Source: Candidatus Zixiibacteriota bacterium (GTDB lineage Bacteria; Zixibacteria; MSB-5A5; GN15; FEB-12). Taken from it: a stretch of DNA of 64,000 nt. The notes beneath the pieces were generated by a model that did not search any database, was not told where the DNA came from, and worked only from the letters and a program-made list of their open reading frames with translations. The stretch is from assembly GCA_036826635.1 (NCBI GenBank), contig DAISVY010000006.1, forward strand, positions 14,554 to 78,553. The letters run 5' to 3'. The position numbers were made by a program, and so were the translations under genes. Position 1 is the first letter of the stretch. Every line of letters starts with the position of its first letter. This document shows, in pieces, positions 3,566-61,731 of the stretch.

Positions 3566-3570
3566 TTTCT

Positions 3571-5775: not shown

Positions 5776-5948
5776 TATATACAGCTCCCGCCGTGGGCGG
5801 ATCAGAAACGGCAGTTTTCGTGAATCGTCCAGAGCCTATTTATCGACTTCCCGACGCAAAATCAAGTCCCTAATGCACTCCGAACACCAACAAATCGGGG
5901 TTTCCCTTGCGAGAAACCCCTGAAATGACAAAGTATCGTCGGTTTGGT

Positions 5949-7073: not shown

Positions 7074-7101
7074 GAGTTGCTCCTATAGGAACTACGGCGA
7101 G

Positions 7102-7500: not shown

Positions 7501-7551
7501 CTCTCGTCTCCTAAGACTCTGTCATCCACGAACGTATGAAAAAGTATTTTC

Positions 7552-7896: not shown

Positions 7897-7911
7897 GTTA
7901 TCACCCTGTTT

Positions 7912-9474
7912 CTAAAGCGGAATCAAACCGTGTTTTTTGTTGGGACGGAGTTCACGCTTTGCCTTCAGCACATCCAGGGCCGCGGCAAGATAGGCACGGG
8001 TTTCGGCGGGTTCGATAATTTCGTCGACCATGCCGTGTCCGGCGGCAAAGTAGGGATTGGCGAAGGTGTTCTTGTATTCTTCAAGACGCCGGGTTCGCTC
8101 CGCGGCGGGATCATCGGCTTCTTTGATTTCTTTTCGGTACAGCACATTGACGGCGCCCTCGGCTCCCATCACGGCGATCTCCGCACTCGGCCAGGCACAA
8201 AGGCGGTCGGCCCCCATGCTCTTGGCGCACATAGCCAGAAAAGCACCGCCGTAAGCCTTGCGCACCACCACGGTCAGTTTGGGCACGGTGGCCGAGGCAT
8301 AGGAAAAGAGCATCTTGGCCCCATGCCGGATAATACCGCCGTACTCCTGCTGGACACCGGGAAGAAAACCGGGAACGTCGACGAACGTTATGACGGGGAT
8401 ATTAAAAGCATTGCAAAAACGGATAAACCGCGAAGCCTTATCCGAAGAGTCGATATCCAGCACTCCCGCCTTAACCATCGGCTGATTGGCGATAATACCC
8501 ACCGACCGACCGGTCAACCGGGCAAAGCCTACAATAATGTTGGCCGCGAACTGCTCCTGCACTTCCATGAAATCGGCATTATCCACCACCCCGCATATGA
8601 TGTCCCGCATGTCATAGGGTTCCCCGGGATCGTCGGGGATTATGTTGTTCATACTTTCGTCGGGACCGATCTCTTCCTCGTACAAATCCGGATAGAAAGG
8701 GGGATCCTCGGTGTTATTGCTCGGCAGGAAAGACAACAGGCGTTTGGTAATATATATGGCGTCCTCGCCGTTCTCGGCCGTGAAATGTACCACGCCCGAG
8801 TAGTGAGCATGGCTTTCCACCCCACCCAGTTGCTCGGCCGAGATATCTTCCCCGGTAACCTGCTTGATCACCAGCGGACCGGTGATATACAACTGCCCCT
8901 CATGCCGCACCTGAATGATGAAATCGGTCAGAGCAGGCGAATAGGCCGCGCCACCGGCGCAGGGACCGGCGATAATGCTTATTTGCGGTACGACACCGGA
9001 GAGAAGCACATTACGATAAAAGACCCCGCCGTAAGCCGAAAGGGCATCGACACCTTCCTGAATCCGCGCTCCGCCACTGTCGTTAATAAAAATGAACGGA
9101 TCGCCCGTTTTCAGAGCGTCGTCCATGATCTGCTGAATCTTGCGACCGGTAGCTTCTCCCACCGAGCCCCCGGCCACGGTGAAATCCTGACTGGCGGCGT
9201 ACACCGGCCGACCGTCAATAATGCCGTGTCCGGTAACTACCCCCTCACCGGGGAACTCCTTGTCTGCCATGCCGAAATCCCGGCAGCGGTTCCGCATGAA
9301 CAGACCGGACTCGTCAAAAGTATCCTCATCAAAAAGAAGAGCAAGCCTCTCGCGAGCCGTCAGCTTGCCCAATTCGTGCTGCTTGGCAATGCGCTTGTCA
9401 CCGCCCCCCTTGTGCAGCCGTTCTTTTCTCTTCCTAAGATCATCTATTTTCGATTCCGCCATCAGCATCATCAC
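7912..9474 (-). CDS. mmdA: Methylmalonyl-CoA decarboxylase alpha subunit / acyl-CoA carboxyltransferase (PccB family)
   Basis: 520 aa with GGGDKRIAKQHELGKLTARERL, DSGGARIQEG and GPCAGGAAYSPALTDF motifs, closely matching the pattern of MmdA/PccB. Several Met codons lie at the 5' end, so the exact start is ambiguous (9462-9474). Confidence 0.9.
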   Translation of the reverse strand: MMMLMAESKIDDLRKRKERLHKGGGDKRIAKQHELGKLTARERLALLFDEDTFDESGLFMRNRCRDFGMADKEFPGEGVVTGHGIIDGRPVYAASQDFTVAGGSVGEATGRKIQQIMDDALKTGDPFIFINDSGGARIQEGVDALSAYGGVFYRNVLLSGVVPQISIIAGPCAGGAAYSPALTDFIIQVRHEGQLYITGPLVIKQVTGEDISAEQLGGVESHAHYSGVVHFTAENGEDAIYITKRLLSFLPSNNTEDPPFYPDLYEEEIGPDESMNNIIPDDPGEPYDMRDIICGVVDNADFMEVQEQFAANIIVGFARLTGRSVGIIANQPMVKAGVLDIDSSDKASRFIRFCNAFNIPVITFVDVPGFLPGVQQEYGGIIRHGAKMLFSYASATVPKLTVVVRKAYGGAFLAMCAKSMGADRLCAWPSAEIAVMGAEGAVNVLYRKEIKEADDPAAERTRRLEEYKNTFANPYFAAGHGMVDEIIEPAETRAYLAAALDVLKAKRELRPNKKHGLIPL

Positions 9475-9835
9475 CTTAAGACAAAAAGTTACTCATAGAC
9501 CGCCCAATGTATATCAAAATGGGAAAATGGCAAATAATTCCGGGCTGATTTCATCTTTTAGCCGACAGAAATCCCGGCTCGAGTCGTTTCGGCCGGGAAC
9601 CGTGGCCAAAAGAACAGGGGGGCACAAACGAGCAGGAGTGTCCGACCGGAAAGAACCGTGCCCGTGTCAAATGGCAATAACCACCCTTTGCGTCGGCGGA
9701 TTAGACTGTTCATGAAAAAGATACAATACCCGTCGGAAAACCGGACAGACCAACACCCCGCACCGGGCCAACCTCTATTGACCCGATGCCGCCCCCGATG
9801 TCTGTGTTTTCCGCAACTGCCACAAAATCGACAAA

Positions 9836-10294
9836 CTAAAAATCAGACGAGCGATCGCGCGTGCCCAAACCCTCGAGATACAGCTTCAAATAGCGGTTTT
9901 CTATCTCCGTGCGTTTGACCCGGGCCCTGATAATATCGCGCATTGTCACGATATCAACAATATGATCACCCTCGACAATCGGCATACAGCGAATCCAGTT
10001 TTTGTTCATCACTTCGGCCACGTAGTCAACGTCGTCATCGGACAGACCGACAATGACATTGGTCGTCATCACATCGCCAACTGTCAGATCGTGATAGTCG
10101 CCCCTGGTTTCGTGCACTTTGCGAAAGATATCTTTGGTGCTGGCTATCCCGACCAGGCGGTTGTCCTCATCCACAACCGGCAGGCAACCGATCTTTTCGC
10201 CAAACAACAACTCCATGGCTTCATCGAATGACGTCGATGCCGAACAGGTAATGAGGTCCCGGGATTTCTTTTCCAATACTTGCTTTACCAGCAT
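9836..10294 (-). CDS. CBS-pair domain protein
   Basis: 152 aa containing two CBS repeats (LPVVDEDNRLVGIASTKDI and MPIVEGDHIVDIVTMRDI). Confidence 0.8.
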   Translation of the reverse strand: MLVKQVLEKKSRDLITCSASTSFDEAMELLFGEKIGCLPVVDEDNRLVGIASTKDIFRKVHETRGDYHDLTVGDVMTTNVIVGLSDDDVDYVAEVMNKNWIRCMPIVEGDHIVDIVTMRDIIRARVKRTEIENRYLKLYLEGLGTRDRSSDF

Positions 10295-13808: not shown

Positions 13809-15254
13809 TCAGGCCACAGAATCAAGCCCGGGACGAGGCCACCTCAAAGAGAAAAGAGGCGTGGCCACCAACGACACGATCATACCGACCGTACCGGCCT
13901 GAGGGGACGGCATGCCCCCGGCGTAAAGCGCTATACAAACGCCCAAACCCAGGATCGACGAGATAATCGCCCCGGTTTTGTTTACCCAGCGAGTAAAAAG
14001 CCCCCAGATGAAAGGCCCCAGGAAAACCGACCCGATAGCCCCCCAGGAGATACCGAGAATGGCCACGATATGAGTTGGCTTGAGATAAGCGAAAAAGACC
14101 GACAGAAACACGAAAAAGGCGCTGGCCAGACGCATCAGGAAAGTGAGCTTTCTGTCCGAAACACCCGGATTGATAAACCCGGCGTAGAGATCTCGGGCCA
14201 CCGAGGAACTGGAAATCAGCACCAGAGCAGCCAGGGTGGACATCGAAGCCGAGAGGATCAAAAGAAGGATCAGCACCGACAGAGAATCGGGGATGACGTT
14301 GGCCAGAAGCTCCGGCATCAGGGCGTCGAAAATCGGTGCGCCATGATCAAAAGCGGTCGGCGCCGATTCCGGTGAGAGAAAGACGCGGCCGGTGGCACCG
14401 GTAAAATAGGCCGCTCCGCCAACGAGAATTGCGAAAATAGTGGAAGCCACCATACCGATCCGAATCGACTTACGGTCTTTGACGGCATAAAATTTCTGAA
14501 CCAGTTGGGGCATGGCAAAAGGAGCCACGCTGGTAAGAAACACCAGACTGAACAACGGCCACCAACCGGGCGGTCCGACCACCTCGGTGAGTTTGGGGTC
14601 TATTTCCCTCAGGGTCCGAACAATGCCGCTCAAACCACCGCCCTGATCCACCGTACTCCAGACCAGAATTATTACCCCGACCACCATTATCATGCCGAAG
14701 AAAACATCGATCATGGTCATCGACCGATACCCGCCCAGCACCAGATAAAGCGCCGTGAACAGCCCCATCAACACCAGTGCCCATTCGTAGGGGATATGGA
14801 AATTGGACTCGAAAAGATGACTCAGCCCTTTGAAGACAGCCGCCGAATAAGGAACGAAAAACACGAAGATACACACGGCGGCAAATATCTTCAGAAATCG
14901 GCTGTCATAACGTTTCTGAAAAAACTCCGGCATCGTGGCCACTTCGTATTCGAGCGACATTTTCTTGATCCGATTACCCAGCAACCACCAGACAGCCAGC
15001 ACCCCGATCAAAGCATTGCCCAGCGCGATCCACAGATCGGAAAAACCGAATCCCCAGCCGATTTTACCGGCGAAACCGATAAAAACAACCGCCGAGAAAT
15101 AAGCCGTACCATAGGTGAAGGCGGTCATCCACGGGCCGATACTGCGCCCCCCGAGGAAGAAATCCGAAAACGAATGGGTCTTGCGCATGGCGCGCAGTCC
15201 GACAAGGACTATCGTCAGCCCATAGGCCACTATCACGACGATTTTCAGGAACAT
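13809..15254 (-). CDS. Sodium:solute symporter (SSS family, PutP/PanF-like)
   Basis: 481 aa with about 13 TM helices and an N-terminal FFLGGRSIGPW motif typical of SSS transporters. Confidence 0.85.
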   Translation of the reverse strand: MFLKIVVIVAYGLTIVLVGLRAMRKTHSFSDFFLGGRSIGPWMTAFTYGTAYFSAVVFIGFAGKIGWGFGFSDLWIALGNALIGVLAVWWLLGNRIKKMSLEYEVATMPEFFQKRYDSRFLKIFAAVCIFVFFVPYSAAVFKGLSHLFESNFHIPYEWALVLMGLFTALYLVLGGYRSMTMIDVFFGMIMVVGVIILVWSTVDQGGGLSGIVRTLREIDPKLTEVVGPPGWWPLFSLVFLTSVAPFAMPQLVQKFYAVKDRKSIRIGMVASTIFAILVGGAAYFTGATGRVFLSPESAPTAFDHGAPIFDALMPELLANVIPDSLSVLILLLILSASMSTLAALVLISSSSVARDLYAGFINPGVSDRKLTFLMRLASAFFVFLSVFFAYLKPTHIVAILGISWGAIGSVFLGPFIWGLFTRWVNKTGAIISSILGLGVCIALYAGGMPSPQAGTVGMIVSLVATPLFSLRWPRPGLDSVA

Positions 15255-15587
15255 GGTCTCTCCCTGGTTGCTATGGCAGACAAGAGGGTGGCCGGCGGTT
15301 CTTCGGGGCCGTTCAGTGAGCCCGAGGACTCAACGCCTTCCCTCGTGGTCTGCATTCGTGGTTGCCGGGTTCACGCGGTTTATCGATCACTCCCGATGCC
15401 CGGGGATATACACCGATACTGCCTCCGACCCGGGCCGACCGGTGCAAGAACCACCGCCCCGACCAGAACCGGACAGGTTACGGACAAGCTGATTTACTGT
15501 GATCAATTAACCCGCACAGGAGACAACAAACCGTTCCCCGGGGCACTTGTCAAGCTTTCCGGTAAATACCTCGGCACAGCCGCAGCA

Positions 15588-16898
15588 TCAATAAGGATAG
15601 AAAACGTAAAACAGCAGCGATAACGCGGCCAGAATCCACATGCCCAGCGCCACCTCGCGTGCCCGCCCGGCGAATATCTTGGCCAGGGGGTAAGTGACAA
15701 ACCCGGCCGTGATGCCAACCCCCAGATTGAAACTGAAAGACATCATGACAATAGCACAAAAAGCCGGCAGGGCCTCCGTAAGGTCATGATATTCAAGCCG
15801 GGTCACCGGGCCGAGCATAAGCAAACCCACGATCATCAGAGCCGGACCGTAGGCACAGGCCGGTATGGCTGTCAGAAGCGGTGAGAAAAACAACGCCAGC
15901 AGAAAGAGCAACGCGGTAACTACCGCCGTCAGCCCGGATCGACCGCCCGCCTCAATCCCGGCCGCCGATTCAAGATAGATACCGGCCGTACTGGTTCCGA
16001 GCAGCGCCCCGACCACCGTAGCCGTGGAATCGCAGAGCATTGGTTTTTCTATCTCTGGAAGGTTCCCCTGTTCATCCAGCAGCCCCGCTTTATAGGACAA
16101 ACCCATGAGTGTGCCGGTGGTATCGACGAAATCCATGACAAGCACGGTGAGAATAACGGAGAAAAAGCCCCAGTGAAGAGCCCCGGCGATATCCAGTTCC
16201 AGAAAGATCGGTTTCAGGCTGGGAGGCATGCTCACCAATTGCGTCGGGAAGGCAGCCACCCCCGTAACAAAAGCGACCACCGACATGGAAAGAATACCGA
16301 TAAGCAAAGCACCCTTGAAACGGTGGATCATCAGAAAAGCCATAACGAAAAAACAGACGACGGCCAGAAAAATCGGCAGGCTGGTAAGATCACCCACGTG
16401 CACGGGGGCACCTTCCACCCCCAACTCGACGATACCGGTATGGTTAAGACCGATAAAAGTCAGATACAAACCGATCCCGACCGAGAAAGCGATCTTAAGT
16501 GAATTGGGGATAGCGTTGGCCAGCCAGCTTCTGATGCGAAAAGCACTGATAAGAGTGAAGAGCACGCCGCCGATAAACACCGCCCCCAAAGCGGTTTGCC
16601 AGGTGTAGCCCAGTACCTGCACAACCGTATAAGCGATAAATGCGTTTTCCCCCATGTAAGGCAGAATGGCAAAAGGCCGCCGGGCATAGATACCGAGCGC
16701 CATCGTTCCGAAAAACGCCGTCAATATGGTAGCAACCATCGAGGGACCAAACGGAATCCCCGCCGCTTCCAGAACTTTCGGATTCACGACGATGACGTAG
16801 GCGACGGTAGCGAAAGTCGTTACCCCGGCCAACACCTCGCGGCGGAAAGTCGTTTGCAGAGCTTCGAGCCTGAAATACCTGCTGATCCATCCGGACAT
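15588..16898 (-). CDS. NCS2-family purine permease (AzgA/PbuG-like adenine/guanine/hypoxanthine permease)
   Basis: The N-terminus reads FRLEALQTTFRREVLAGVTTFATVAYVIVVNP, as in AzgA-type permeases. I chose the start at 16898 (MSGWISRYF) because a GGAGGTG RBS lies 7 nt upstream. Confidence 0.85.
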   Translation of the reverse strand: MSGWISRYFRLEALQTTFRREVLAGVTTFATVAYVIVVNPKVLEAAGIPFGPSMVATILTAFFGTMALGIYARRPFAILPYMGENAFIAYTVVQVLGYTWQTALGAVFIGGVLFTLISAFRIRSWLANAIPNSLKIAFSVGIGLYLTFIGLNHTGIVELGVEGAPVHVGDLTSLPIFLAVVCFFVMAFLMIHRFKGALLIGILSMSVVAFVTGVAAFPTQLVSMPPSLKPIFLELDIAGALHWGFFSVILTVLVMDFVDTTGTLMGLSYKAGLLDEQGNLPEIEKPMLCDSTATVVGALLGTSTAGIYLESAAGIEAGGRSGLTAVVTALLFLLALFFSPLLTAIPACAYGPALMIVGLLMLGPVTRLEYHDLTEALPAFCAIVMMSFSFNLGVGITAGFVTYPLAKIFAGRAREVALGMWILAALSLLFYVFYPY

Positions 16899-25615: not shown

Positions 25616-26308
25616 ATGGAACGCTGTCTTATCACCGGAGCCACCAGAGGTATGGGGCGCGCCATCGCTCTTCGGCTGGCCGGGCCGGACAAAGAACTGC
25701 TCCTGCACGGACGTAATCGGGAAGCGTTAGAGCAGGTCCGTGCCGAGGTAGAAAACGCCGGGGCCAAAGCCCGTGTATTGCTGTGCGATTTGAGCAATCC
25801 CGCCGAAATCGAAACGATGATTGACGCTATCGGTACCGAGCCGTTGCGGGCGATAATCAACAACGCCGGTATCGCCATTGTCAAACCGCTGGGTGAATTG
25901 TCGCTGCGGGAATGGCAGGATTCGTTCGCGGTGAATGTCACGGCCCCGTTCCTCTTGATTCAGAAGCTCAGTGCCCTGATGGAAAAAGGCGCCGGTGTGG
26001 TTAATATCCTCTCGGTGGCGGCTCGTACCGGTTTCCCCGGCTGGAGCAGCTATTGTATGAGTAAGTTCGCTCTGGAAGGTTTCACGCGGGCGGTGCGCGA
26101 GGAATTGCGCCCCCGGGGTATTCGTGTTATCAATATCTACCCATCGGCCACCAATACCGATCTGTGGAATGAAATCGAAGGTGACTGGCCGCGCGATAAG
26201 ATGCTCTCGCCCGATGAAGTCGCCGAAGCTGTCGTCTATGCTCTCACTCGTCCCGACTCGGTGCTGGTAGAGGACATCTCCCTCGGCAATCTCTCCGGCA
26301 CGCTGTAG
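25616..26308 (+). CDS. Short-chain dehydrogenase/reductase (possible sepiapterin/pterin reductase role by context)
   Basis: It has the TGATRGMGRAIA Rossmann motif, NNAG, and the catalytic YCMSK (YxxxK). I chose the start at 25616 (MERCLITG), which follows an AGGAA RBS directly after the PTPS stop. Confidence 0.85.
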   Translation: MERCLITGATRGMGRAIALRLAGPDKELLLHGRNREALEQVRAEVENAGAKARVLLCDLSNPAEIETMIDAIGTEPLRAIINNAGIAIVKPLGELSLREWQDSFAVNVTAPFLLIQKLSALMEKGAGVVNILSVAARTGFPGWSSYCMSKFALEGFTRAVREELRPRGIRVINIYPSATNTDLWNEIEGDWPRDKMLSPDEVAEAVVYALTRPDSVLVEDISLGNLSGTL

Positions 26309-26338
26309 GCCGGCCCTGCCGGGTTATCTTGTCCCCTT

Positions 26339-26992
26339 CTATATTTCTTCTTCGAGCGAGGTACCAAGATCCTTCTGGATCCATGCACTATTAGCGTATT
26401 CCAAAATCACATGGTAATTAGTGGATTTGATAATTCCTCGGCCTATCTGAAAAAGTGTCACAATGACTCTGATCCTATCACCACTGTTCTCATCATCCCA
26501 CACGGTCTCTAAATATGTGTCTTTCGAAAGCGGGGCTCCGAAATCGGTTGGCGTTACTTGGTTGCGAGTAGGTTCTCCATATTTCTTCTTGAGAACATCT
26601 GTTAACTTTTGATAATACGACCACATCTTGTTGATAGTCTCAGACTCGTCACCAGTAATTATGCGAAAATGGTATTGAAAAACTGAAAGCGCACCATCTT
26701 CATCGAAAACAGCAAGGATTTCATCTGCTTCTTCGCCCAATAGTTTGACTTTTTCAATCTCGGCATAACGATAGCCTTCAGGAAGTTCGTGAACCGGGTA
26801 GAACGTGTGCGTCTTGTGATCCTTGCTCAGTTTCTTGATCTTGGCTTTTTCTCCCTTAGACGGGTTTTCTAACTTGTTTCTTACTTCATCATACGTCATT
26901 CCCCAACTTAGCCCTTTTGGAGGATTGAATGCCAGAGTGTTTGAAGCTAGCAGCATGCATGCTAATGTCAGAAATATTCGTTTCATAAGCAC
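26339..26992 (-). CDS. Hypothetical secreted protein (AT-richer islet)
   Basis: 217 aa with an N-terminal signal peptide (MLMKRIFLTLACMLLASNTLA). I recognised no family. The codon usage is visibly AT-richer than in neighbouring genes. Confidence 0.55.
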   Translation of the reverse strand: MLMKRIFLTLACMLLASNTLAFNPPKGLSWGMTYDEVRNKLENPSKGEKAKIKKLSKDHKTHTFYPVHELPEGYRYAEIEKVKLLGEEADEILAVFDEDGALSVFQYHFRIITGDESETINKMWSYYQKLTDVLKKKYGEPTRNQVTPTDFGAPLSKDTYLETVWDDENSGDRIRVIVTLFQIGRGIIKSTNYHVILEYANSAWIQKDLGTSLEEEI

Positions 26993-27270
26993 TCCCGGAA
27001 AAAGCTCTGTTTATTATTATTGATTGAATCAAAGTTAACAACAATGGATATACATGTCAAGTATTACGCTTACGATATGGAGCAATCACACGGCAGAGTC
27101 CCTTGATGATCCTTCTCTCCGTCAACGCTAATATAGCGGTTTTAGCTTGATTTTTTCTGAAACTGGGCTTAAGATGAGAAATAGACCAACAAAGGTAAGA
27201 TCATTTTTTAACAAAAGACATCATTTCGTTGACAGTCAACCTGGACACCAGTGGATGAAAGGAGCACGCC

Positions 27271-27909
27271 ATGAAAAACATTGACAATAGAGGCTTGTAT
27301 CGAAAAGCTGCCTGCTGGGAAGTGCTTTGCATACTCAGTCTGGTAGTTGGCTTTCTTCCAATGAGTTCGTTTGCTCAGGTTGGTGGGAGCGAACCTCTCA
27401 TCAAGTATGCTCAAAGGCAGGCGGGGAGAACTTTTGACGAAAAGTGGTCTTGGTCTTTTGGCGATGCGTTGATGTTACTCAAAGAGAATAACGGAATTAA
27501 AACCGGGGCGATTCTTCCGATCAGGATCAGCACATGGAGTTTCCCCATTACATTAGTGCGGCTCAACTCGGACGATTCTCAGAACGTCCGTATTGAGCCA
27601 ATTCTGTCTGTGGGACTTGGATATGTTTGGATCAGTGGATTGAGCACCATAGACGCGAAAAATGAAAGCATAATAATCTATCCCAGTAGCACTATAGGAA
27701 TTGCAGCCAGTTTAGGAGTCATTAACAAAGTTGATGGCTCCGCAGGAACTGAAGGAAGTCTAACTCTAACCGGTGTCATTGGACTCCGCTCAATGTTAAT
27801 TTCTTTTGGTTACGATTTCTTGTCCGAATCCCCGGTAGTTGGAATGGGCTTCTGTGTTAATCTCTTTACGCTGTCAAAAAACGCCTACCGAATCTCTGGA
27901 ATCGATTGA
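27271..27909 (+). CDS. Hypothetical exported/possibly beta-barrel protein (AT-richer islet)
   Basis: 212 aa. It has a hydrophobic signal-like segment ending SSFAQ and alternating beta-strand-like segments. I recognised no family. Confidence 0.5.
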   Translation: MKNIDNRGLYRKAACWEVLCILSLVVGFLPMSSFAQVGGSEPLIKYAQRQAGRTFDEKWSWSFGDALMLLKENNGIKTGAILPIRISTWSFPITLVRLNSDDSQNVRIEPILSVGLGYVWISGLSTIDAKNESIIIYPSSTIGIAASLGVINKVDGSAGTEGSLTLTGVIGLRSMLISFGYDFLSESPVVGMGFCVNLFTLSKNAYRISGID

Positions 27910-27989
27910 CTCTTAGCTAAGCTTCCCTGTCAAGCAAGCTTAGAACAGAACCCCTCGGCGGTTTTGCTCTACGTCAACTCTGTTGGTAA

Positions 27990-28649
27990 TCATTTCTTCG
28001 TGTTGTACGTTACACCCCAACTCTTCTCACCTGGTCGCTCAATGTATTTGACATTATCCGCGATGTCCCTGAGGACATTCTTGACTTCCTCTTCTGTGGG
28101 GAAGTTCTTCACGATCTCAAATGAGCGACCGTCCGGCAAAGAGCGTTGCTCTAAAGTATTGCCGTCAGGATCTTGCCTCCTGGCCTGCCCTTCATAAGGC
28201 AGTTGATCGACAAACAGCACAAGAGCTCCGGGCGCGAGCCTGCTGTGCAACACGGAGAGAAACGGCCGAATCTGCGCTTTTGGTATGTGAGACCACCACC
28301 AGATCCCCAGGGCAGCGCTGAACCCCGTTCGAACCCCGTCGAGGGTGTATGCGTCGGTTGTCTCGAATTGGACGTTGGACAGATGCTTGCACCTGTCCTT
28401 TGCAATCGAGACGAGCGATGAGTTAATGTCCGTTGCGAGCACTGAGTTTGCTACTTCGCCGATGACTTGTGTCCAGTACCCTGACCCGCAAGCAATCTCA
28501 AGCACATCATGTCCACTGAACATCTCTCGGTACCGTGCCTTGATAGGGACACGAAGCTGTTCTGCCTCCGGATCGGTGTAGCCTGCCGTCTCGTCGTAAA
28601 CAAGGGCTCGGGCTGCATAGTATTCGGTTATATTGTTAACCAATGACAT
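27990..28649 (-). CDS. Class I SAM-dependent methyltransferase
   Basis: 219 aa with the motif I sequence [12 protein letters not shown] and an acidic residue after beta-2 (LATDIN). The substrate is unknown. Confidence 0.8.
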
Positions 28650-55913: not shown

Positions 55914-56426
55914 TTATATCGAAAATCTCCAGCCACAGTAGTGCTTGTCGCCGGCTTCGGGATCGGGCGGAGCGCAGATAACCTCGGTTTTGATACGCTC
56001 GTCGATGGTGCTGGCAAAACCGGTATACTCCACCACGCCGACCGATTTACACGGGAAGAGCGTCATGTTCTTGCGCTTGCGAGCCGATTGCACCCGGCAA
56101 TCGACCATGTAGAAGTCAAACGAGTTTTCGGTCTCGTTGCGGATTTCCTGTTCGTTCAAAACGGCGTACAGCCGGTATCCCAGCGCCTTTTTCAAACCCG
56201 CCAGACCGCTGTTGGGGGGGATATCGTGCCGGGCCATAATCCGTTTGGCCTCAATGACGGTGAAGCGCTCCCAGGCCTCAATGTCAAGCCTGATAGCCTC
56301 GTCAATCCCGTGCGCTCTTTCCACGGCCTGAAACCACAGACCATCGTGGGCCAGCCAGTTCCTGGCGAAATCGGTCAGCATTTTTACCAGCACTTCACGA
56401 TCAAGTCCCTCGAGTTGAGAAATCAT
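55914..56426 (-). CDS. Hypothetical cytosolic protein (DUF6125-like, from memory)
   Basis: The start at 56426 (MISQLEG) follows an AAAGGAGGAGG RBS. The motif NWLAHDGLWFQAVE...EAWERFTVIEAKRI matches what I recall of the DUF6125 family. Confidence 0.55.
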   Translation of the reverse strand: MISQLEGLDREVLVKMLTDFARNWLAHDGLWFQAVERAHGIDEAIRLDIEAWERFTVIEAKRIMARHDIPPNSGLAGLKKALGYRLYAVLNEQEIRNETENSFDFYMVDCRVQSARKRKNMTLFPCKSVGVVEYTGFASTIDERIKTEVICAPPDPEAGDKHYCGWRFSI

Positions 56427-56581
56427 GCCTCCTCCTTTATTGCCTCGGAATGTCCCACTATACAAAACCGGCCGCCTTTACAAAAGAACGATATTGGCCT
56501 ATCTTGCTTGAAGTCCTGCCTCCGGGGCTTTCTTGTTTGCATGAACTCCGGTGGTAAGTCGTCGTTATACCGGAGAAACCT

Positions 56582-59527
56582 ATGAGATTACTCGCGTCGT
56601 TCGCCGTAATAAGTCTGCTGCTGGTCGTTTCGCCTGATGTTCTTGCCGGACAACTCGGAGAAAAACTAACGGAAACAATCAGCACGAAAACACCCGATCA
56701 ATTCGTGTCCGTCTGGATTCGGCTCCATGACAAACAGGACACGAACCGGCTAAGTAAAACCGTGGCGACACAGGCGGCGACCCGGGCCGAGCGACATCGG
56801 ATAGCTCATGCGGAATTGAAACAAAGAAGCCTCGACCAGAACGACTTGTTAACCGAACTGGAATCCATGGCTTCCCGAAATCAGGCCAGAAACGTAAAGG
56901 GACACTGGATCGTCAATGTCATCGAGGCCGAGATCGAAGTTGGGCAGCTTGAGCACCTGGCCGCCAGAGAAGATATCGACGTGATTTACCAGCAACCGAA
57001 GATCGAACTGGTAGCGCCCGATATCGGCAAAGTTCGCACCGATCACTCGACAGCAACCGCAACCGTCGGCAGCAATCTGACTCATATCAACGCCCCGGCA
57101 GCCTGGAACGCCGGTTATACCGGTCTTGGCCGCGTGGTGTGCGCTTTCGATAACGGCGTGCTCGGTGGTCACCCGGCTTTGAAAAATAGCTGGAAAGGTA
57201 ACGACGGCGACACGGCGGCGGCCTGGTTCGACCAGCTTTACGAAGGGTCTGCCCCCCATCCTTTCCCGGAAACGTACTCCTACTACTACGATCACGGCAC
57301 CCACACCATGGGCACGATAGTGGGACGCGACGACGCTACCGGCGACACGACAGGCGTGGCTATCGAAGCCGAATGGATCGGAGCCGCGGTGGTGGATATC
57401 GCGGGAGTCTCGGTGCTCGATGCTTTCGAGTGGGCGGCGGACCCGGACGGTAACCCGAATACTATCGACGATGTTCCGGATGTCATCAATCACAGTTGGG
57501 GATTAATAATGTCGTCCTGTCTCAACATCGTATACGATGCAATCGACAACACCGAGGCGCTGGGAATTGTCAACGTCTTTGCGGCCGGCAACGAAGGTTC
57601 AGCTTCCACGGCAATCCGCAACCCGGCCGACCGGGCTCTGGATTCGATTGACTGCTTCGCGGTCGGTAATCTTCAGCATGAAGCCGTACCCCCGACGATC
57701 GCTTCCAATTCTTCACGCGGTCCTTCCCCCTGCAACGGAGCGATCAAACCGAACGTAGTCGCGCCCGGCACCGATATCAGATCGACGTGGAATGACAGTA
57801 GTTACAACACACTAAGCGGTACGTCCATGGCCGCGCCGCACGTTTCCGGACTGGTGGCCCTGCTGCGGCAGAAAAACCCGGACGCCACGGTGGACCAGAT
57901 AAAAACGGCTATCCTGAACTCCACGCAACGGGCCGGTTTCGGCACTATCCCCAACAACACTTACGGCTGGGGAGAAATCGACTGCATGGCGGCGCTGAAC
58001 GCTCTCCCCGGTCCCGATGGTCCGGACGTACGCCTCTATGATTTCAGCCATGCCCCCATCTCTCCGGGCGATACCGTCGCCGGGACAATCGTACTGACCA
58101 ACCCGGGGACCATGGCCAGCAATGTTTCGGTAAGCATCACCGGAAGCAACAGCGATCTGACCATTCTCTCCGGCAACGCCTCTTTCGGTAATATCGCCCA
58201 CGGGGCAATCGTGCGGTCGAATGATTCGATTCGGGCGATAGTTTCGCCGGGCGTGTGCGAGGGCAGCCAACTGCCTATTGAACTGAGCATTACCGGCACC
58301 GGCTACAGTGATATCACCACTCTGTATTTCGTGGTCGAACCGCCTTTGAAAAAATCAATCGCCACACACGACGTGGGACGGATCGAGTTCAGTCTGTCCA
58401 ATTACGGCGTTTACGGCCTCGGACCGGACCTGGTAACTTCGATCTACCCCACAGGCGGAGTGGGATTCACCTTTGACGGTGGCAGTAACGAACTCTATGA
58501 AGGCGGCATAATGGTAGGGGACGATTTCACCCGCGTCTCCAGCGGCTGGCACAACGCCCTGTTCACCCCGGACATGGATTTCAAAGTCGCTCCGGACGGA
58601 AATCTGGAATTCTTCGAACCCGGCATGACAGCCCAGCAAACGCACTGCATCTATAACGACAGCAACGCCCATGACCCGCTTGGCCTCGAAATCGAACAGG
58701 AGTCTTTCGCTCTGGCGCCGCCCAACGATGATTACCTGGTCATGCGCTACATTCTCCGCAACGTCAGCGGGGCCACGCTGTCGAACGTGTATTTCGGCTT
58801 ATTCATGGACTTTGATTGCTATGATTACCGCTACAACGCCGGCGGGTACGACACCGCCAGTGGCGTGACCTGGATTGCATACAACTCCGGAACGACTTCC
58901 GACCCGCAGTATGCGATCTTTCGGGGATTGAAACTTCTGCAGGGATCGGTAGCCGCCGCGGGGGCCATCCCGGCCGCGCCGTATTATCCGTGCGAGGCCA
59001 GTCCTTCCGGGCCCGGTTTCCCCACCAACGAGAAATTCCGCATCCTCACCAGCGGAATGCAATACGCCTACGACTATGACAGCGCCAAAACGAACCTGTT
59101 CATATTCATAACCGGCGGACCGCTTAATATCTCGACGGACGGCTGCGATACGCTAAGCTACGCCATCATGGCGGCGGATAACCTGACCGGATTGAAAGCC
59201 GTCGCCGAGCGGGCGCAATCAATCTATACGGATGTTGACGAGATTCCCCCGGTCGATGAACTGCCATCGAGGTTCGTTCTGCACCAGAACTATCCCAATC
59301 CCTTCAACCCGTCGACCGTGATATCGTTCGAGATGCCCCACTACGGTGCGTACACTCTGACTGTCATGAACCTGCTCGGACGGACGGTGCACAAGGAGTC
59401 CGGCACGGCCCGGGCCGGAACGGTAAATATCGAATGGAACGCCGACGGGCTGGCCTCGGGGGTTTACCTGTACGAAGTCAGGGTCGGGGAATGTTCCGAA
59501 ACGCGCAAGATGATACTCCTGAAATAA
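56582..59527 (+). CDS. Secreted subtilisin-family (S8) serine protease with a T9SS-type C-terminal sorting domain
   Basis: 981 aa with a signal peptide. The Asp/His/Asn/Ser motifs are VCAFDNGV, HGTHTMGT, FAAGNEG and SGTSMAAPHVSG. The C-terminal 80 aa (LHQNYPNPFNPSTVISFE...ASGVYLYEVR) is typical of Por/T9SS CTDs. Confidence 0.9.
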   Translation: MRLLASFAVISLLLVVSPDVLAGQLGEKLTETISTKTPDQFVSVWIRLHDKQDTNRLSKTVATQAATRAERHRIAHAELKQRSLDQNDLLTELESMASRNQARNVKGHWIVNVIEAEIEVGQLEHLAAREDIDVIYQQPKIELVAPDIGKVRTDHSTATATVGSNLTHINAPAAWNAGYTGLGRVVCAFDNGVLGGHPALKNSWKGNDGDTAAAWFDQLYEGSAPHPFPETYSYYYDHGTHTMGTIVGRDDATGDTTGVAIEAEWIGAAVVDIAGVSVLDAFEWAADPDGNPNTIDDVPDVINHSWGLIMSSCLNIVYDAIDNTEALGIVNVFAAGNEGSASTAIRNPADRALDSIDCFAVGNLQHEAVPPTIASNSSRGPSPCNGAIKPNVVAPGTDIRSTWNDSSYNTLSGTSMAAPHVSGLVALLRQKNPDATVDQIKTAILNSTQRAGFGTIPNNTYGWGEIDCMAALNALPGPDGPDVRLYDFSHAPISPGDTVAGTIVLTNPGTMASNVSVSITGSNSDLTILSGNASFGNIAHGAIVRSNDSIRAIVSPGVCEGSQLPIELSITGTGYSDITTLYFVVEPPLKKSIATHDVGRIEFSLSNYGVYGLGPDLVTSIYPTGGVGFTFDGGSNELYEGGIMVGDDFTRVSSGWHNALFTPDMDFKVAPDGNLEFFEPGMTAQQTHCIYNDSNAHDPLGLEIEQESFALAPPNDDYLVMRYILRNVSGATLSNVYFGLFMDFDCYDYRYNAGGYDTASGVTWIAYNSGTTSDPQYAIFRGLKLLQGSVAAAGAIPAAPYYPCEASPSGPGFPTNEKFRILTSGMQYAYDYDSAKTNLFIFITGGPLNISTDGCDTLSYAIMAADNLTGLKAVAERAQSIYTDVDEIPPVDELPSRFVLHQNYPNPFNPSTVISFEMPHYGAYTLTVMNLLGRTVHKESGTARAGTVNIEWNADGLASGVYLYEVRVGECSETRKMILLK

Positions 59528-59548: not shown

Positions 59549-59583
59549 ACCGGCCGGACCTGCGGGTGCGGCCGGTTTCTTTA
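59549..59583. terminator. Hairpin between convergent genes (likely bidirectional terminator)
   Basis: ACCGGCCG pairs with CGGCCGGT around a 12-nt loop and is followed by TTCTTT on the plus strand. It lies between the protease stop (59527) and the stop of the minus-strand gene (59581). Confidence 0.55.
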
Positions 59584-60705
59584 TGTGTCACGATTGATTG
59601 TCGACGGCAGAAACGGGATTACCCGATACCCGAATCTCCGGTGCAGCAATTCGGCTTCGTCGGCCGTGTGACAGAACAAAACCACGGCCTCACGGGGAAT
59701 CCCGTCCATGTAAAAATTACCTCGATGTCGGTATTCCTTCTCGGTGCGCCAGTCGCTTATCTTCCCTTCCGACTGACTCAGCCACATCAGATCGGGCGGA
59801 AGTTTTACCTCGTCCCCTTTCCCGTAATAGGCTACCGGGTGTATTCCCTTCTCCAGAGCGATTTGTTTTTCGATTCCCAGACCGTACGGCTCGAATGACA
59901 TCCGGCCATAACGCGCCCGCCACCTCATCAACGGCGCAACTTCCCGCGGCGGCAGCGAAGAGAATGACACGACAGGTTCTTTCCCCGGCATGTTTCGTGA
60001 CGAAGCCATCAAACGCTGCGAATGAACTATATGCGACAACGTATCGAATCCAGAACGCGGCCAGGAAGCGGCGGTGACAACGGCCCGATAAAGATCAATA
60101 ATGCGCTCGTCCGGCCAGCGATCATTGGTCGCCCGTGTCCAGTGGGTAATGTAGTCCGCCTCGAGGTCTTCTATTTCGGGATTAAGCGAGTCCGGAGAAA
60201 TTACCAACGCCAACGGTTCCTGTCGATCCTCGTAAGGCACGACAAAGTCCCGGTTGACGATCATACCCGACGCTTCCGCATCGGCTATCAGAGAAGCCAT
60301 GTTGCCTTCTCCGCGCACGGATACGGGTACCAGCAAATCGGCCAGTTCGACAACGCTTCGGTCTCGCGCGGACATCAGAGCCGTACCCGAGGATTCCCGT
60401 CCGGACAACACAACCGGGACAAATTCCGTCAGATGGGAATCGAGAGCGAACTGCCGCTTGAGAGCATCACGACGAGAGAAAAACTGCGACATCGATACGG
60501 CCGGCACGACCAGCTTGAGCGGGCATTGTTCCAGAACCGCCAGGGCCGTCACCAGTTCCCAGGTTTGCATGCCCGACGAACCGACCAGACCATACCCCTG
60601 CTTACGCAGCCAGGTAAGTGCGGCTACGGCTCCCCGGACCCAGGCGCTTTTACCCGATGGGCGAAGTGGTTGGCGTGAGAGCAGGACAGCGGCGAATTTC
60701 GACAT
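59581..60705 (-). CDS. Hypothetical fusion: DprA/Smf-like (SLOG-type Rossmann) N-terminal domain plus AbiGi/DUF2971-like C-terminal domain
   Basis: 374 aa from ATG 60705 (MSKFAAVLLSRQP). The N-terminal half parallels DprA (AVLLSRQP..S...A.AL..L...GYGLVGSSG...ARDRSVVELADLLVPVSV..EGNMASLI.A...G). The C-terminal half has ITHWTR...VVSFSSLP...YGRMSFEPYGLGI...GIHPVAYY...EKEYRHRG. The 47-aa ORF-track N-terminal extension looks non-coding. Confidence 0.6.
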   Translation of the reverse strand: MSKFAAVLLSRQPLRPSGKSAWVRGAVAALTWLRKQGYGLVGSSGMQTWELVTALAVLEQCPLKLVVPAVSMSQFFSRRDALKRQFALDSHLTEFVPVVLSGRESSGTALMSARDRSVVELADLLVPVSVRGEGNMASLIADAEASGMIVNRDFVVPYEDRQEPLALVISPDSLNPEIEDLEADYITHWTRATNDRWPDERIIDLYRAVVTAASWPRSGFDTLSHIVHSQRLMASSRNMPGKEPVVSFSSLPPREVAPLMRWRARYGRMSFEPYGLGIEKQIALEKGIHPVAYYGKGDEVKLPPDLMWLSQSEGKISDWRTEKEYRHRGNFYMDGIPREAVVLFCHTADEAELLHRRFGYRVIPFLPSTINRDT

Positions 60706-60854
60706 AGTTGCAATTTCCCGGAAGCGGTTAATCCGACAAACCGTTTTTTTCAATAGTCCTCTTTCCGAAAAGGGAATACATACAACTTCAGCGCCTTCGG
60801 CAAGGAAAAAAGAAATATAGCCCCACAAACAGCGGAAAGGTGACACTGTTAAAC

Positions 60855-60883
60855 TTGACAGTTCCCCCGAAGGATCGTAAATA
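60855..60883 (+). promoter_or_regulatory. Sigma70-like promoter upstream of the endonuclease V-like gene
   Basis: TTGACA (60855-60860), a 17-nt spacer and TAAATA (60878-60883), about 125 nt upstream of the TTG start at 61009. Confidence 0.45.
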
Positions 60884-61008
60884 TAGTCGCAAGTATCATA
60901 AACGATGGGAACCTCCCAAGGTCAGCGACAAACCGTATATCCGAATTCAGCCCTGCGCTAACTTTTTTCGGTTATCGGATCAACCAGGAAAAGAGAAAGA
61001 CAGTTGCC

Positions 61009-61731
61009 TTGGACTGGGTAAACAAACACCACTGGCCCCAAAATGAACTACAGGCCCTCGCGTTGCAGGATGAACGGGCCGCCCTCGTCGACCTGACCGA
61101 CAATACCGGGGAACCGAAACTTATCGCTGCCGCCGAAGCCGCATACGGCAACAATGGTCAAAGCATCTATGCCGCGGCGCTGGTTTTCACTTTTCCGGGC
61201 TTCGAAGAAGTGGACAAATGTTTGTATCAACAACCGGCCAGGTTTCCGTATATTCCCGGGCTTTTCTATTTCCGCGAAGGTCCCGCCTTGGTCGGTGCCC
61301 TTTCAGGTTTGAAGTGCGACCCCGATTTGCTGATGATCAGCGGGCACGGAATCGCCCACCCGCAGTTTTGCGGCATGGCCTGCCATATCGGGATAGATTT
61401 CGACAAACCCACGGTCGGTTGTGCGCGCCGGCTGCTTTGCGGCTATCACCAGCCGGTCGAGTCGAGCAGAGGGAGCGCTCGACCTATCAGTTATGGTAAT
61501 ATCGAAGTCGGGGTGGCCTATCGCAGCAAAGATAACGTTAAGCCCATTTTCATCTCCCCCGGTCACTGTTGCAACGTAACTTTCGCCCGAAACATCACAA
61601 TCCGTTGTCTTCTCGATTATCGTCTGCCCGAACCGCTTCACCAAACCCACCTGCTGGCCCACAAGCACAAGCGCTACCTCGAAAAAGAGATCAGCAACCG
61701 GACAAGTTCGGATGACAACCAAACCGTATAA
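61009..61731 (+). CDS. nfi: Endonuclease V family protein with non-canonical metal-binding residues
   Basis: 240 aa that aligns by eye along E. coli Nfi (FPYIPGLFYFREGPAL, PDLLMISGHGIAHP, PTVGCARRLLCG, YRLPEP). AAEAAY replaces GADVGF, ISGHG replaces VDGHG, and HPQF replaces HPRR. Confidence 0.8.
   Translation: MDWVNKHHWPQNELQALALQDERAALVDLTDNTGEPKLIAAAEAAYGNNGQSIYAAALVFTFPGFEEVDKCLYQQPARFPYIPGLFYFREGPALVGALSGLKCDPDLLMISGHGIAHPQFCGMACHIGIDFDKPTVGCARRLLCGYHQPVESSRGSARPISYGNIEVGVAYRSKDNVKPIFISPGHCCNVTFARNITIRCLLDYRLPEPLHQTHLLAHKHKRYLEKEISNRTSSDDNQTV

Follow-up and report, generated by a model that had tools for sequence, protein, structure and literature searches.

A protein family of Zixibacteria and Fibrobacterota joining a DprA-like SLOG fold to a putative ADP-ribosyltransferase-like domain

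Introduction

The question raised by the locus described here is whether a two-part protein with relatives in conflict systems for both of its halves is itself a conflict protein, or whether it serves the physiology of the bacterium that encodes it. The gene lies in a stretch of 64,000 nucleotides of a Candidatus Zixiibacteriota genome (contig DAISVY010000006.1), referred to below as the window. An earlier note, made from the sequence alone, had read its product as a DprA/SLOG-like domain fused to an AbiGi/DUF2971-like domain and had proposed a single-gene anti-phage or nucleotide-sensing function. We analyzed the protein by profile searches, structure prediction and fold comparison, and its gene by comparison of the corresponding loci in related genomes.

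Results

The target gene (positions 59581–60705, minus strand) is complete and encodes 374 residues followed by a stop codon, as read from the list of open reading frames and the translation. A longer GTG-initiated frame in the same list extends to position 60846; the methionine equivalent to that of the initial MSKF is the start in 39 of 39 aligned homologues, which confirms the start codon. The family is large: 185 full-length homologues share 40–52% identity with the target, and at the 50% clustering level 1720 cluster representatives are retrieved at E ≤ 1e-3, at least 660 of them at E ≤ 1e-30. Its members are unannotated "hypothetical proteins" of about 365 residues. The window protein has no significant family match in Pfam, NCBIfam or PADLOC and no sequence match in the PDB; in PHROGs it weakly matches an unannotated family (E 0.007), and a search of BFVD, which returned unnamed or uncharacterised viral proteins alone, was not informative. 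Profile searches of the PDB with alignments of the full-length protein, of its C-terminal half and of a standalone family described below gave two marginal matches, AriA (E 0.008, on the inter-domain stretch) and a lysine methyltransferase (E 0.009), both taken as chance.

The reading frame is real, and all the motifs quoted from it in the earlier note are present: AAVLLSRQP (residues 5–13), GYGLVGSSG (37–45), ARDRSVVELADLLVPVSV (113–130) and EGNMASLI (133–140) in the N-terminal half, HWT (188–190), VSFSS (246–250), YGLGI (274–278), PVAYY (290–294) and EKEYR (322–326) in the C-terminal half. In a set of 40 homologues of about 45% identity, most of these motifs hold invariant or near-invariant residues and are therefore not chance patterns. 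Taken together, the predicted structures, the fold matches and the family profiles support the description of the target as an uncharacterised two-part protein in which a DprA-like SLOG Rossmannoid is followed by an AbiGi/DUF2971-like domain. A fusion of this kind is modelled in none of Pfam, NCBIfam, PADLOC, PHROGs and the PDB, and no paper pairing AbiGi with SLOG was found in the literature searched, so that the combination is undescribed within these libraries and this literature, as had been supposed.

Residues 1–165 (positions 60211–60705, minus strand) form an alternating β/α Rossmannoid of SLOG/DprA-like fold in the AF2 model (pLDDT 92.4, pTM 0.88). The best Foldseek match of this model in the PDB is ShosA (8zva, E 3.7e-5 over about 150 residues, probability about 1.0); the DprA structures 4ljr, 3uqz, 3maj and 5mll match with E 1e-4 to 1e-3 and probability 1.0, and the Moco carrier protein, YpsA, the SLOG domain of ThsA and LOG-like proteins with probability about 1.0. 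By this comparison the domain has the Rossmann-like core of DprA as well as the fold common to the SLOG superfamily, of which LOG, YpsA, DprA, the Moco carrier protein and the C-terminal domain of ThsA are members. At the level of sequence, a tie to DprA was rejected: Pfam PF02481 (DNA_processg_A) is matched at E ≤ 10 by 0 of 40 members, hhalign of the N-terminal profile against Escherichia coli Smf gives a probability of 0.3%. One weak Pfam match, to the SLOG-type family LDcluster4, was seen (E 0.15, 1 of 40 members). The position-by-position likeness to DprA put forward in the earlier note thus holds for the fold and not for the sequence. Moreover, the SAM-like N-terminal and winged-helix C-terminal domains that flank the core of DprA are absent: the SLOG-like domain begins at residue 1 and the C-terminal domain follows.

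The invariant residues of the N-terminal domain are S10, R11, Q12, P16, W22, S43, G45, T48, W49, R114, D115 and P127, and S129, R131, G134 and M136 are nearly so. Four arginines are conserved in the domain, and Ser/Gly/Thr loops follow its β-strands. These loops may bind a nucleotide or a nucleotide-derived ligand in the manner of SLOG domains, a putative function suggested by the conservation of S10-R11-Q12, of S43, G45 and T48, of R114-D115 and of S129, R131 and G134. Each half of the protein has a net charge of only about +2, which gives little hint of strong binding to nucleic acids.

The C-terminal domain (residues ~183–366; positions 59608–60159, minus strand) is a putative DarT-like ADP-ribosyltransferase (ART)-fold domain according to AF2, Foldseek and HMM comparisons. 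The model of residues 166–374 has a pLDDT of 90.2, and its best two fold matches in the PDB are DarTG (7omu, E 0.042) and DarT1 (8baq, E 0.17, TM 0.41), followed by KptA, tankyrase and an Rhs ART toxin; none of these matches is significant, and all the non-noise ones are ART-fold proteins. The Foldseek comparison of each half, suggested in the earlier note, gave SLOG matches for the first (E 4e-5 to 1e-3) and non-significant DarT matches for the second.

Among the families searched, AbiGi is the one that recurs. The PADLOC AbiGi model is matched by 12 of 40 members (best 22.9 bits, E 1.1e-5, model positions 80–124 of 260) and Pfam AbiGi (PF10899) by 9 of 40 plus 3 of 10 members (best E 0.012–0.024, best score 16.1 bits against a gathering score of 22.4). 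These matches are local, about 45 residues long (residues ~265–317), and cover neither H188 nor the ExE motif described below; no full-length AbiGi match above the curated cut-off was obtained. The similarity always falls on this one segment, and no other family recurs when the member sets are compared with Pfam and PADLOC. DUF2971 (PF11185) is matched once, below its gathering score (E 0.13, 14.1 against 22 bits), and PHROG 13416 by 19 of 40 members (residues 270–300 in the window protein). No DarT match was obtained in the Pfam scans, PF14487 included, or in the PADLOC scans. The AbiGi/DUF2971 likeness claimed for this half is thus borne out as a recurrent, sub-threshold and local similarity of sequence.

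The residues conserved in this domain are distributed as in ARTs. Candidate motif I, H188-W-T190-R191 (positions 60133–60144, minus strand), lies on the first C-terminal strand, predicted at residues 185–191, with H188, T190 and R191 invariant in 40 of 40 sequences. Candidate motif II is carried by the strand V246-S-F248-S-S250 (59956–59970, minus strand; V246 and F248 near-invariant), predicted at residues 245–249 and followed by a conserved Arg-rich helix (253–266). The invariant columns of E272-P-Y274-G275 (59881–59892, minus strand), at the start of strand 271–279, are the core of the local AbiGi, DUF2971 and PHROG 13416 matches. Candidate motif III, E322-K-E324-Y-R326 (E-x-E-[YW]-R; 59728–59742, minus strand), opens strand 324–328; E322, E324 and R326 are invariant and are kept even in the most divergent Fibrobacterota-type members. 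The catalytic-type motifs H188-x-T190, F248-S249 and E322-x-E324, invariant or nearly so, sit on predicted strands 1, 2 and 5, which, with the helix between strands 2 and 3, corresponds to the canonical ART layout in the predicted structure; the helices of residues 202–229 lie between the first two strands. The R-H-R-R motifs of the Tpt1 type are absent from the 40-sequence alignment.

These features can be compared with published families. DarT1 has a serine at the motif II position, and both DarT1 and DarT2 modify bases of single-stranded DNA (PMC11543638). AbiGi and DUF2971 have been counted among the families of ART fold, with motifs of H/Y/ExE type and, between β1 and β2, large helical inserts; ExE serves as motif III in DUF2971 and in ARTs related to it (PMC12522546); according to a 2026 review, AbiGi itself has no significant PDB match (PMC13064643). 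The above data show that the C-terminal domain is remotely related to the AbiGi/DUF2971 group, a group assigned to the ART superfamily by published computation. The ART assignment of the domain itself rests on remote evidence, namely the Foldseek matches to DarT (E 0.04–0.17) and the local, sub-threshold AbiGi matches.

No closer relative can be demonstrated for the C-terminal domain than a standalone, unannotated actinobacterial family of about 230 residues, found for example in Kitasatospora (WP_331727353.1), Streptomyces and Actinoplanes: hhalign aligns the two with a probability of 96% (E 1e-9) over residues 183–328, from motif I to motif III. Both have in common the segments written HFTGR, CFSES, PWG, VAY and W.HEREWR in the standalone proteins; HFTGR is aligned with motif I, CFSES with motif II and the invariant E-R-E-W-R with motif III. 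Unlike the target, this family has no SLOG domain, and its genomic contexts are variable, the nearby genes encoding an integrase, a transposase, Abi_C/TIGR02391 or SNF2. A Rosetta-stone relationship was rejected, as the genes upstream of the standalone relatives do not correspond to the SLOG half (probability ≤0.2%); they are also unrelated to one another. A profile search with the standalone family found no bridge to Pfam-annotated AbiGi or DUF2971, none being annotated among the best 120 of 234 relatives.

On the chromosome, the target converges with an S8 protease gene. A GC-rich hairpin read directly from the sequence (positions 59550–59582: CCGGCCG, a 12-nt loop, CGGCCGG, then TTTCTTT) lies between the two stop codons, as the earlier note had stated; its 7-bp arms occupy 59550–59556 and 59569–59575, and its T-run overlaps the stop codon of the target. 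The hairpin is not listed by the consensus terminator scan because its 12-nt loop exceeds the limit of the scan (8 nt). On the other side, a divergent intergenic region of 303 bp (60706–61008, from the ORF coordinates) presumably holds the promoters of both the target and an endonuclease V gene. A scan of this region for the sigma-70-type promoter consensus, which does not cover the promoter types of this lineage, gave no match, nor did Rfam, and Rfam and tRNA scans found no RNA element at the locus or in the whole window. The divergent neighbour is an endonuclease V gene, as had been noted (Pfam E 4e-56); calling it atypical is only mildly justified, its score of 194.7 lying below the NCBIfam equivalog cut-off of 230. 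A general functional tie between the two genes was rejected because their adjacency is limited to about 14 of some 80 loci.

On the side of the convergent gene, 44 of 78 loci have the same S8 subtilase gene directly next to the target, with DUF6125 usually beyond it, and the order target, convergent S8 subtilase, DUF6125 persists down to 33% identity of the target. In 22 of 76 related loci the target directly follows same-strand genes for divalent-metal uptake, of three unrelated transporter types: DtxR/MntR with ZnuA-ABC, Nramp with Usp, and ZIP. The spacing is often very tight, 2–58 nt in loci where the target adjoins a transporter or Usp gene, which suggests co-transcription. No AbiGii partner gene is conserved in 80 loci; no macrodomain, NADAR or ARH reversing enzyme occurs among the conserved neighbour clusters, and no known defence gene among the conserved neighbours.

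At least 92 species genomes, from Zixibacteria and Fibrobacterota, carry the target gene. Its base composition (GC 0.569, GC3 0.627) is like that of its neighbours, and in close genome pairs its dS is similar to that of flanking genes, with nearest-neighbour pairs largely shared between target and flanks. A Mantel test of co-divergence with the flanking genes gave a weak correlation (r 0.12), the distances of the target reaching saturation near 0.6, and was replaced by the closest-pair and dS comparisons. The dN/dS ratio of 0.16–0.18 indicates purifying selection. The protein evolves 2–3 times faster than its neighbours, a rate that a conflict-related role would also allow. Searches of phage records and of IMG/VR contigs yielded no relatives, and the plasmid relatives amount to one weak, partial match. 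The target is thus a stable, vertically inherited chromosomal gene across Zixibacteria and some Fibrobacterota and no mobile anti-phage cargo. The homologues, for which the earlier note had foreseen variable islands, lie in a conserved syntenic core-genome context in Zixibacteria, a neighbourhood of housekeeping type, and a PADLOC screen gave 0 matches for the window protein and only local AbiGi-domain matches in relatives, with no system. A conserved core-genome context was one of the findings that the earlier note had named as refuting its anti-phage proposal, which therefore fails on the note's own terms.

Discussion

Several known systems share parts of this architecture. DarT, a single-stranded DNA (ssDNA) thymidine- or guanosine-specific ADP-ribosyltransferase toxin paired in DarTG with a macrodomain or NADAR antitoxin, resembles the predicted C-terminal domain in a layout of ART type, where strand 1 bears a conserved His and strand 5 a Glu of catalytic type, and its ssDNA substrate fits the DprA-like partner domain of the target. 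Unlike in DarTG, however, neither DarG nor NADAR nor another reversing enzyme is fused or adjacent, and the context is chromosomal and syntenic rather than a toxin–antitoxin or defence locus. AbiGi (PF10899; PADLOC PDLC02331), the first gene product of the lactococcal abortive-infection system AbiG, is the sole family matched recurrently, around the segment MSFEPYGIGI...V.YY, but the matches span only about 45 of 185–260 model positions, and the target differs from it in its fusion to a SLOG domain, the lack of an AbiGii partner and the lack of a plasmid location. With DUF2971 (PF11185), a proposed DarT-like ART family, the target has in common a motif grammar (an aromatic-Gly strand and E-x-E-[WY]-R) and a large helical insert between β1 and β2.

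For the N-terminal half the closest comparison is ShosA, the DprA-like antitoxin of ShosTA, whose DprA-like domain binds ssDNA (PMC11961720). The conserved positions of the target are similar to those of DprA and ShosA (S-R behind strand 1, S-x-G behind strand 2, R-D-R in the helix that precedes strand 5) at an identity of only 13–15%, and a catalytic-type domain replaces the SAM and winged-helix domains of DprA. In ThsA of the Thoeris system, as in the target, SLOG is joined in one polypeptide to an effector of NAD+-utilising type, putative in the target. The SLOG domain of ThsA senses cyclic ADPR isomers. ThsA has a SIR2 or transmembrane effector and a C-terminal SLOG domain, needs ThsB and resides in defence islands, none of which is true of the target.

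Our tentative reading, to which we give a little less than an even chance, is that the target is a vertically inherited, lineage-specific two-domain enzyme, ART-like and SLOG, with an endogenous role. In its most likely form it would be a domesticated NAD+-dependent ADP-ribosyltransferase whose SLOG domain targets or gates it. The C-terminal domain would bind NAD+ and move ADP-ribose onto a substrate, and the DprA-like domain would probably provide substrate targeting or ligand gating in cis. Speculatively, the favoured substrate is single-stranded nucleic acid, since the best N-terminal matches are ssDNA binders and the best, non-significant C-terminal matches ADP-ribosyltransferases of ssDNA bases. 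The enzyme would serve the cell's own physiology, for example DNA/RNA metabolism or a response to stress, rather than be mobile anti-phage cargo. Against this reading stand the remote nature of the ART evidence, the lack of a significant PDB match for AbiGi itself, the missing sequence-level tie to DprA, the modest net charge, the faster evolution of the protein and the lack of a conserved ADP-ribose-removing partner nearby, which a DarT-like enzyme, if active, should require. The more specific proposal of a chromosomally fixed ADP-ribosyltransferase of ssDNA or RNA bases, which carries its own DprA-like single-strand-binding module, lacks an antitoxin and acts in endogenous replication, repair or transformation-type processing, seems to us improbable.

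The gating could instead be the essence of the protein: SLOG would sense a nucleotide or an ADP-ribose-derived molecule and switch protein ADP-ribosylation or NAD+ hydrolysis, with a role in stress or metal limitation. The ligand binders among the fold matches (the ThsA SLOG domain, the Moco carrier protein and LOG-like proteins), the metal-uptake genes directly upstream in 22 of 76 related loci and the modest net charge, which argues against a dedicated nucleic-acid binder, speak for such an enzyme, yet the strongest N-terminal matches belong to the ssDNA-binding DprA/ShosA branch and not to the small-molecule branches; the window copy has no upstream metal genes, and most loci lack the metal linkage, which could reflect a meaningless cassette-insertion slot. 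We regard this alternative as rather unlikely, and a C-terminal domain that is no ART at all as more doubtful still. Such a domain might be another His/Glu/Arg enzyme (a nucleic-acid hydrolase or an RNA 2'-phosphotransferase-like protein) or a non-catalytic binding module, consistent with the lack of a statistically significant fold match to any ART and of a PDB sequence match, with an AbiGi family of no experimentally shown activity and with the presence of the Tpt1-type KptA among the weak fold matches. The ART fold of every non-noise match (DarTG, DarT1, KptA, tankyrase, the Rhs ART toxin), the canonical ART placement of H, S and ExE (predicted strands 1, 2 and 5) and of the helix that separates strands 2 and 3, and the absence of the Tpt1-type R-H-R-R motifs all argue the other way.

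The original proposal of a single-gene anti-phage or abortive-infection protein, with SLOG as sensor and the AbiGi-like domain as effector, is the least probable of these readings and a distinctly improbable one. It draws on the kinship with AbiGi as part of a lactococcal Abi system, on the standalone actinobacterial relatives beside Abi_C/TIGR02391, integrase, transposase and SNF2 genes, on the faster evolution of the protein and on the occurrence of SLOG domains in the defence systems of ThsA and ShosA. It is contradicted by the synteny of the core genome across the phylum, where closest pairs and dS largely follow those of the flanks, by native base composition and purifying selection, and by non-mobility, the relatives being found in no phage or viral contig and on plasmids only as the single weak match; neither defence genes among conserved neighbours, nor a PADLOC system, nor an AbiGii partner accompanies it.

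Since the family has at least 660 representatives and is wholly unannotated, defining it would improve the annotation of Zixibacteria and Fibrobacterota; if the protein is inert or merely regulatory, the practical value would be limited to this new family definition. If, on the other hand, the favoured reading of a two-domain enzyme with an endogenous role is true, an ART-like module with kin in abortive-infection, toxin-type and mobile contexts would have been fixed as a core gene in two little-studied lineages of the FCB group. The family would then be a natural test case for the domestication of conflict enzymes and would hint at what the mechanistically obscure AbiGi-type domains do. Should the ssDNA/RNA reading be true, nucleic-acid ADP-ribosylation would have passed, by domestication, from a conflict module to a housekeeping role.

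Two-domain architecture of the protein

The gene lies on the minus strand at 59581–60705 and, read from the ATG at 60705, encodes 374 aa. The longest open frame in the ORF list starts at a GTG at 60846 and would give 421 aa; since all of the 39 aligned homologues (39/39) begin at the Met equivalent to ATG 60705, which alignment and model place 2–4 residues ahead of the first β-strand, the ATG is the correct start, and the reading frame proposed earlier is borne out. An AlphaFold2 model built on a 40-sequence alignment (mean pLDDT 92.4, pTM 0.88) reveals two domains, an alternating β/α N-terminal domain (residues 1 to ~165) and a C-terminal domain of mixed fold (residues ~183–366). A Foldseek search of the PDB with the full-length model gave N-terminal matches spanning about 150 residues, all with a probability of ~1.0: ShosA (8zva, E 3.7e-5), which binds ssDNA (PMC11961720), DprA from three species (E 1e-4 to 1e-3), and the Moco carrier protein, YpsA, the SLOG domain of ThsA and LOG-like proteins (E ~1e-3 to 2e-2). 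As judged from the predicted structure, this set of matches coincides exactly with the SLOG superfamily, the DprA branch ranking first. Pfam DNA_processg_A matched none of the 40 members, and the N-terminal profile aligned to E. coli Smf with an hhalign probability of 0.3%. As a link in sequence is undetectable, the position-by-position parallel with DprA drawn in the earlier note holds for the correspondence of loops at the level of the fold and does not extend to family membership.

The C-terminal domain modelled on its own reached a pLDDT of 90.2, and a PDB fold search with this model returned nothing significant; the top two matches were the DNA ADP-ribosyltransferases DarTG (7omu, E 0.042) and E. 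coli DarT1 (8baq, E 0.17, TM 0.41), followed amid noise by KptA, tankyrase and an Rhs ART toxin. A PDB sequence search with the window protein gave no match; scans against Pfam, NCBIfam and PADLOC yielded no significant hit for it, and PHROGs only a weak one to the unannotated phrog_13416 (E 0.007). When family members were scanned one by one, AbiGi was the sole recurrent family, matched by the PADLOC model in 12 of 40 members (best E 1.1e-5), so that the PADLOC screen is silent on the window protein and responds to its relatives, and by Pfam PF10899 in 9 of 40 and 3 of 10 members (best E 0.012); DUF2971 was matched once (E 0.13). All these matches fall on the segment MSFEPYGIGI...V.YY, cover about 45 residues and stay under the curated cut-offs. 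The proposed kinship with AbiGi/DUF2971 is thus backed by recurrent AbiGi matches and a single DUF2971 match, which are local and sub-threshold, with no significant PDB fold match beside them. Both families have been placed computationally in the ART superfamily near DarT, their motifs being described as H / Y / ExE and their β1 and β2 as separated by a large helical insertion (PMC12522546); in DarT1, motif II has Ser in place of Tyr (PMC11543638). The order of elements in our alignment and model matches that published arrangement: strand 1 with H-W-T-R (residues 185–191), a helical insert (202–229), strand 2 with V-S-F-S-S (245–249), an Arg-rich helix (253–266), strand 3 with the invariant EPYG (271–279), and E322-K-E324-Y-R326 (322–328) leading into the strand 324–328.

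Conservation was read from 40 members of about 45% identity, whose alignment has 35 invariant columns. The motifs first picked out by eye are all found in the protein at the relative positions proposed, and most hold at least one invariant column: S10, R11, Q12, S43, G45, T48, W49, R114, D115 and P127 in the N-terminal domain, and H188, T190, R191, E272, P273, Y274, G275, Y293, E322, E324 and R326 in the C-terminal one. The novelty claimed for the combination stands, as neither the searched libraries nor the literature, searched for AbiGi together with SLOG, reports such a fusion.

Genomic context and inheritance

A GC hairpin of 7 bp followed by TTTCTTT separates the convergent stop codons of the gene and of an S8 protease gene, as had been read from the sequence. 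The divergent neighbour at 61009–61731 is indeed an endonuclease V homologue (Pfam E 4e-56); it scores under the NCBIfam equivalog cut-offs (194.7 vs 230, 174 vs 300) and is thus a somewhat divergent nfi. Endonuclease V adjoins the gene in only ~14 of ~80 related loci. The GC content of the gene (0.569; GC3 0.627) is like that of its neighbours, and the window holds no second copy. Elsewhere in the window, GC falls to 0.454 at 26001–28000 (vs ~0.55); neither of two ORFs there, 26339–26992 (minus strand) and 27271–27909 (plus strand), is matched by Pfam, and next to them 27990–28649 (minus strand) encodes a class I methyltransferase. The stretch 14001–16000 stands out for an unusually high AT skew of 0.298.

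The 185 homologues of 40–52% identity to the protein run its full length (~365 aa), are listed as "hypothetical proteins" and all derive from Zixibacteria MAGs. An exhaustive HMMER search recovered 1720 cluster representatives, 660 of them with E<=1e-30, and in a set with one genome for each GTDB species the family occurs in at least 92 species. Most are Zixibacteria, among them three assemblies or contigs of 3.2–3.8 Mb (two deposited as chromosomes); 14 of the 92 are labelled Fibrobacterota or Chitinispirillaceae, and the copies labelled Fibrobacterota lie in separate neighbourhoods. The same convergent S8 subtilase of ~980 aa, with a type IX secretion tail, lies directly downstream in 44 of 78 distinct loci, usually followed by DUF6125, and this order is kept even where the protein is only 33–34% identical to the window copy. 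The pairing of the subtilase (Por_Secre_tail) with DUF6125, at 55914–59527 in the window, is strongly conserved across Zixibacteria, and DUF6125 is 62–82% identical to the window copy where the fusion protein is only 33–51% identical. The upstream side is more variable, with endonuclease V, M20 peptidase or Reg_prop genes, a β-helix protein, or metal-uptake genes. Neither macrodomain, NADAR or AbiGii genes nor known defence genes are conserved nearby; phage records (50,697) and IMG/VR hold no relatives, and among 72,556 plasmids only a distant Kitasatospora protein matched.

The genome pairs that are closest for the protein are mostly also the closest for S8 and DUF6125, and within these the three genes have similar dS values (e.g. 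0.63, 0.56 and 0.43). For the three least saturated close pairs of loci (L018/L027, L041/L033 and L035/L040), dN/dS is 0.16–0.18 for the fusion gene, 0.06–0.08 for S8 and 0.03–0.12 for DUF6125: the gene is under purifying selection, its product evolving 2–3 times faster than its neighbours. Protein distances saturate near 0.6, yet the 35 residues stay invariant, the picture of a rapidly evolving protein whose catalytic-type core is fixed. Synteny, composition, the lack of mobile relatives, co-inheritance and selection together identify a vertically inherited chromosomal gene, not island cargo. Such a conserved context is what the earlier note had itself named as refuting its proposal of a single-gene anti-phage protein, and by that standard the proposal fails.

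Metal-uptake genes on the same strand directly precede the gene in 22 of 76 related loci, though not in the window. They are of three unrelated types, DtxR/MntR with ZnuA and ABC-3, Nramp with Usp, and ZIP (e.g. 3493–7943, 6121–7950 and 9181–9993 of loci L001, L003 and L008; in L072, L073 and L075 they stand immediately before the fusion gene, which lies at ~10001). The gaps between transporter or Usp gene and the fusion gene are mostly 2–58 nt, at most 201 nt, and such short distances suggest co-transcription; the adjacency may reflect a functional link or a slot for cassette insertion. One member (P0149, 659 aa) carries a 295-residue N-terminal extension before the full two-domain unit; a further fusion may account for it, or else a merger of gene calls.

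Standalone relatives in Actinobacteria

The Kitasatospora plasmid match (tblastn) led to a standalone family of ~230-aa actinobacterial proteins with 234 members, none annotated among the 120 listed. It aligns with residues 183–328 (hhalign probability 96%, E 1e-9) and has in common with the C-terminal domain the motifs HFTGR, CFSES, PWG, VAY and W-HEREWR. Whereas the fusion gene sits in a syntenic chromosomal context, the standalone genes have accessory-type surroundings (integrase with HTH/M78; DDE transposase; Abi_C with an HD protein), the plasmid member being flanked by SNF2 and TIGR02391 genes. Genes upstream of standalone members are unrelated to the SLOG domain and to one another. In Streptomyces and Actinoplanes contigs (L086–L090) the standalone genes lie in variable regions. 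The plasmid protein (WP_331727353.1; NZ_CP107965.1 of Kitasatospora sp. NBC_00374, locus L084, 3884–4690) appears truncated by its annotated start at locus position 4082, the longer ORF containing a conserved LIHFTGR that aligns with H188-W-T-R. The family might itself constitute an accessory or defence-type module that has yet to be described.

Proposed mechanism and alternatives

With its two-domain architecture, invariant residue sets and core-genome status established, we infer that the protein works like an ART of the DarT/AbiGi type joined in cis with a SLOG module; its likeness to ThsA-type SLOG-effector fusions is one of logic only. According to the model, the C-terminal domain would bind NAD+ by means of its H-x-T, F-S and ExE residues and transfer ADP-ribose, and the loops with conserved Arg, Ser, Gly and Thr of the SLOG domain would bind a phosphate-bearing ligand. 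Because the best structural matches of the N-terminal half bind ssDNA and those of the C-terminal half modify ssDNA bases (PMC11543638), we favour, tentatively and at somewhat less than an even chance, a DprA-like domain that would bind single-stranded nucleic acid and hand the substrate to a DarT-like transferase; nucleic acid as the specific substrate is rather doubtful. This reading is weakened by the non-significant fold matches, the local nature of the AbiGi matches, the fact that no activity has been demonstrated to date for AbiGi itself (PMC13064643), a net charge of only ~+2 per domain and the lack of an evident ADP-ribose-removing partner; a non-ART function of the C-terminal domain is improbable. 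The main rival, in which SLOG is a small-molecule sensor gating an ART or NADase that acts on protein or NAD+ in stress or metal physiology, we consider unlikely. A role in defence draws support from the relationship to AbiGi, from the higher rate of protein evolution and from the accessory surroundings of the standalone genes, but vertical inheritance on the chromosome speaks against it, and we regard it as improbable.

By their defining tests the protein falls outside DprA, AbiGi, DUF2971 and DarTG, since HMM cut-offs are not reached, partner genes are absent and the genomic context is wrong. It represents a new, unannotated family that joins two known superfamilies and that, unusually, is fixed in a core genome. 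Housekeeping ADP-ribosylation of nucleic acid by a self-targeting DarT-like enzyme is an improbable reading, which would be of high interest if true.
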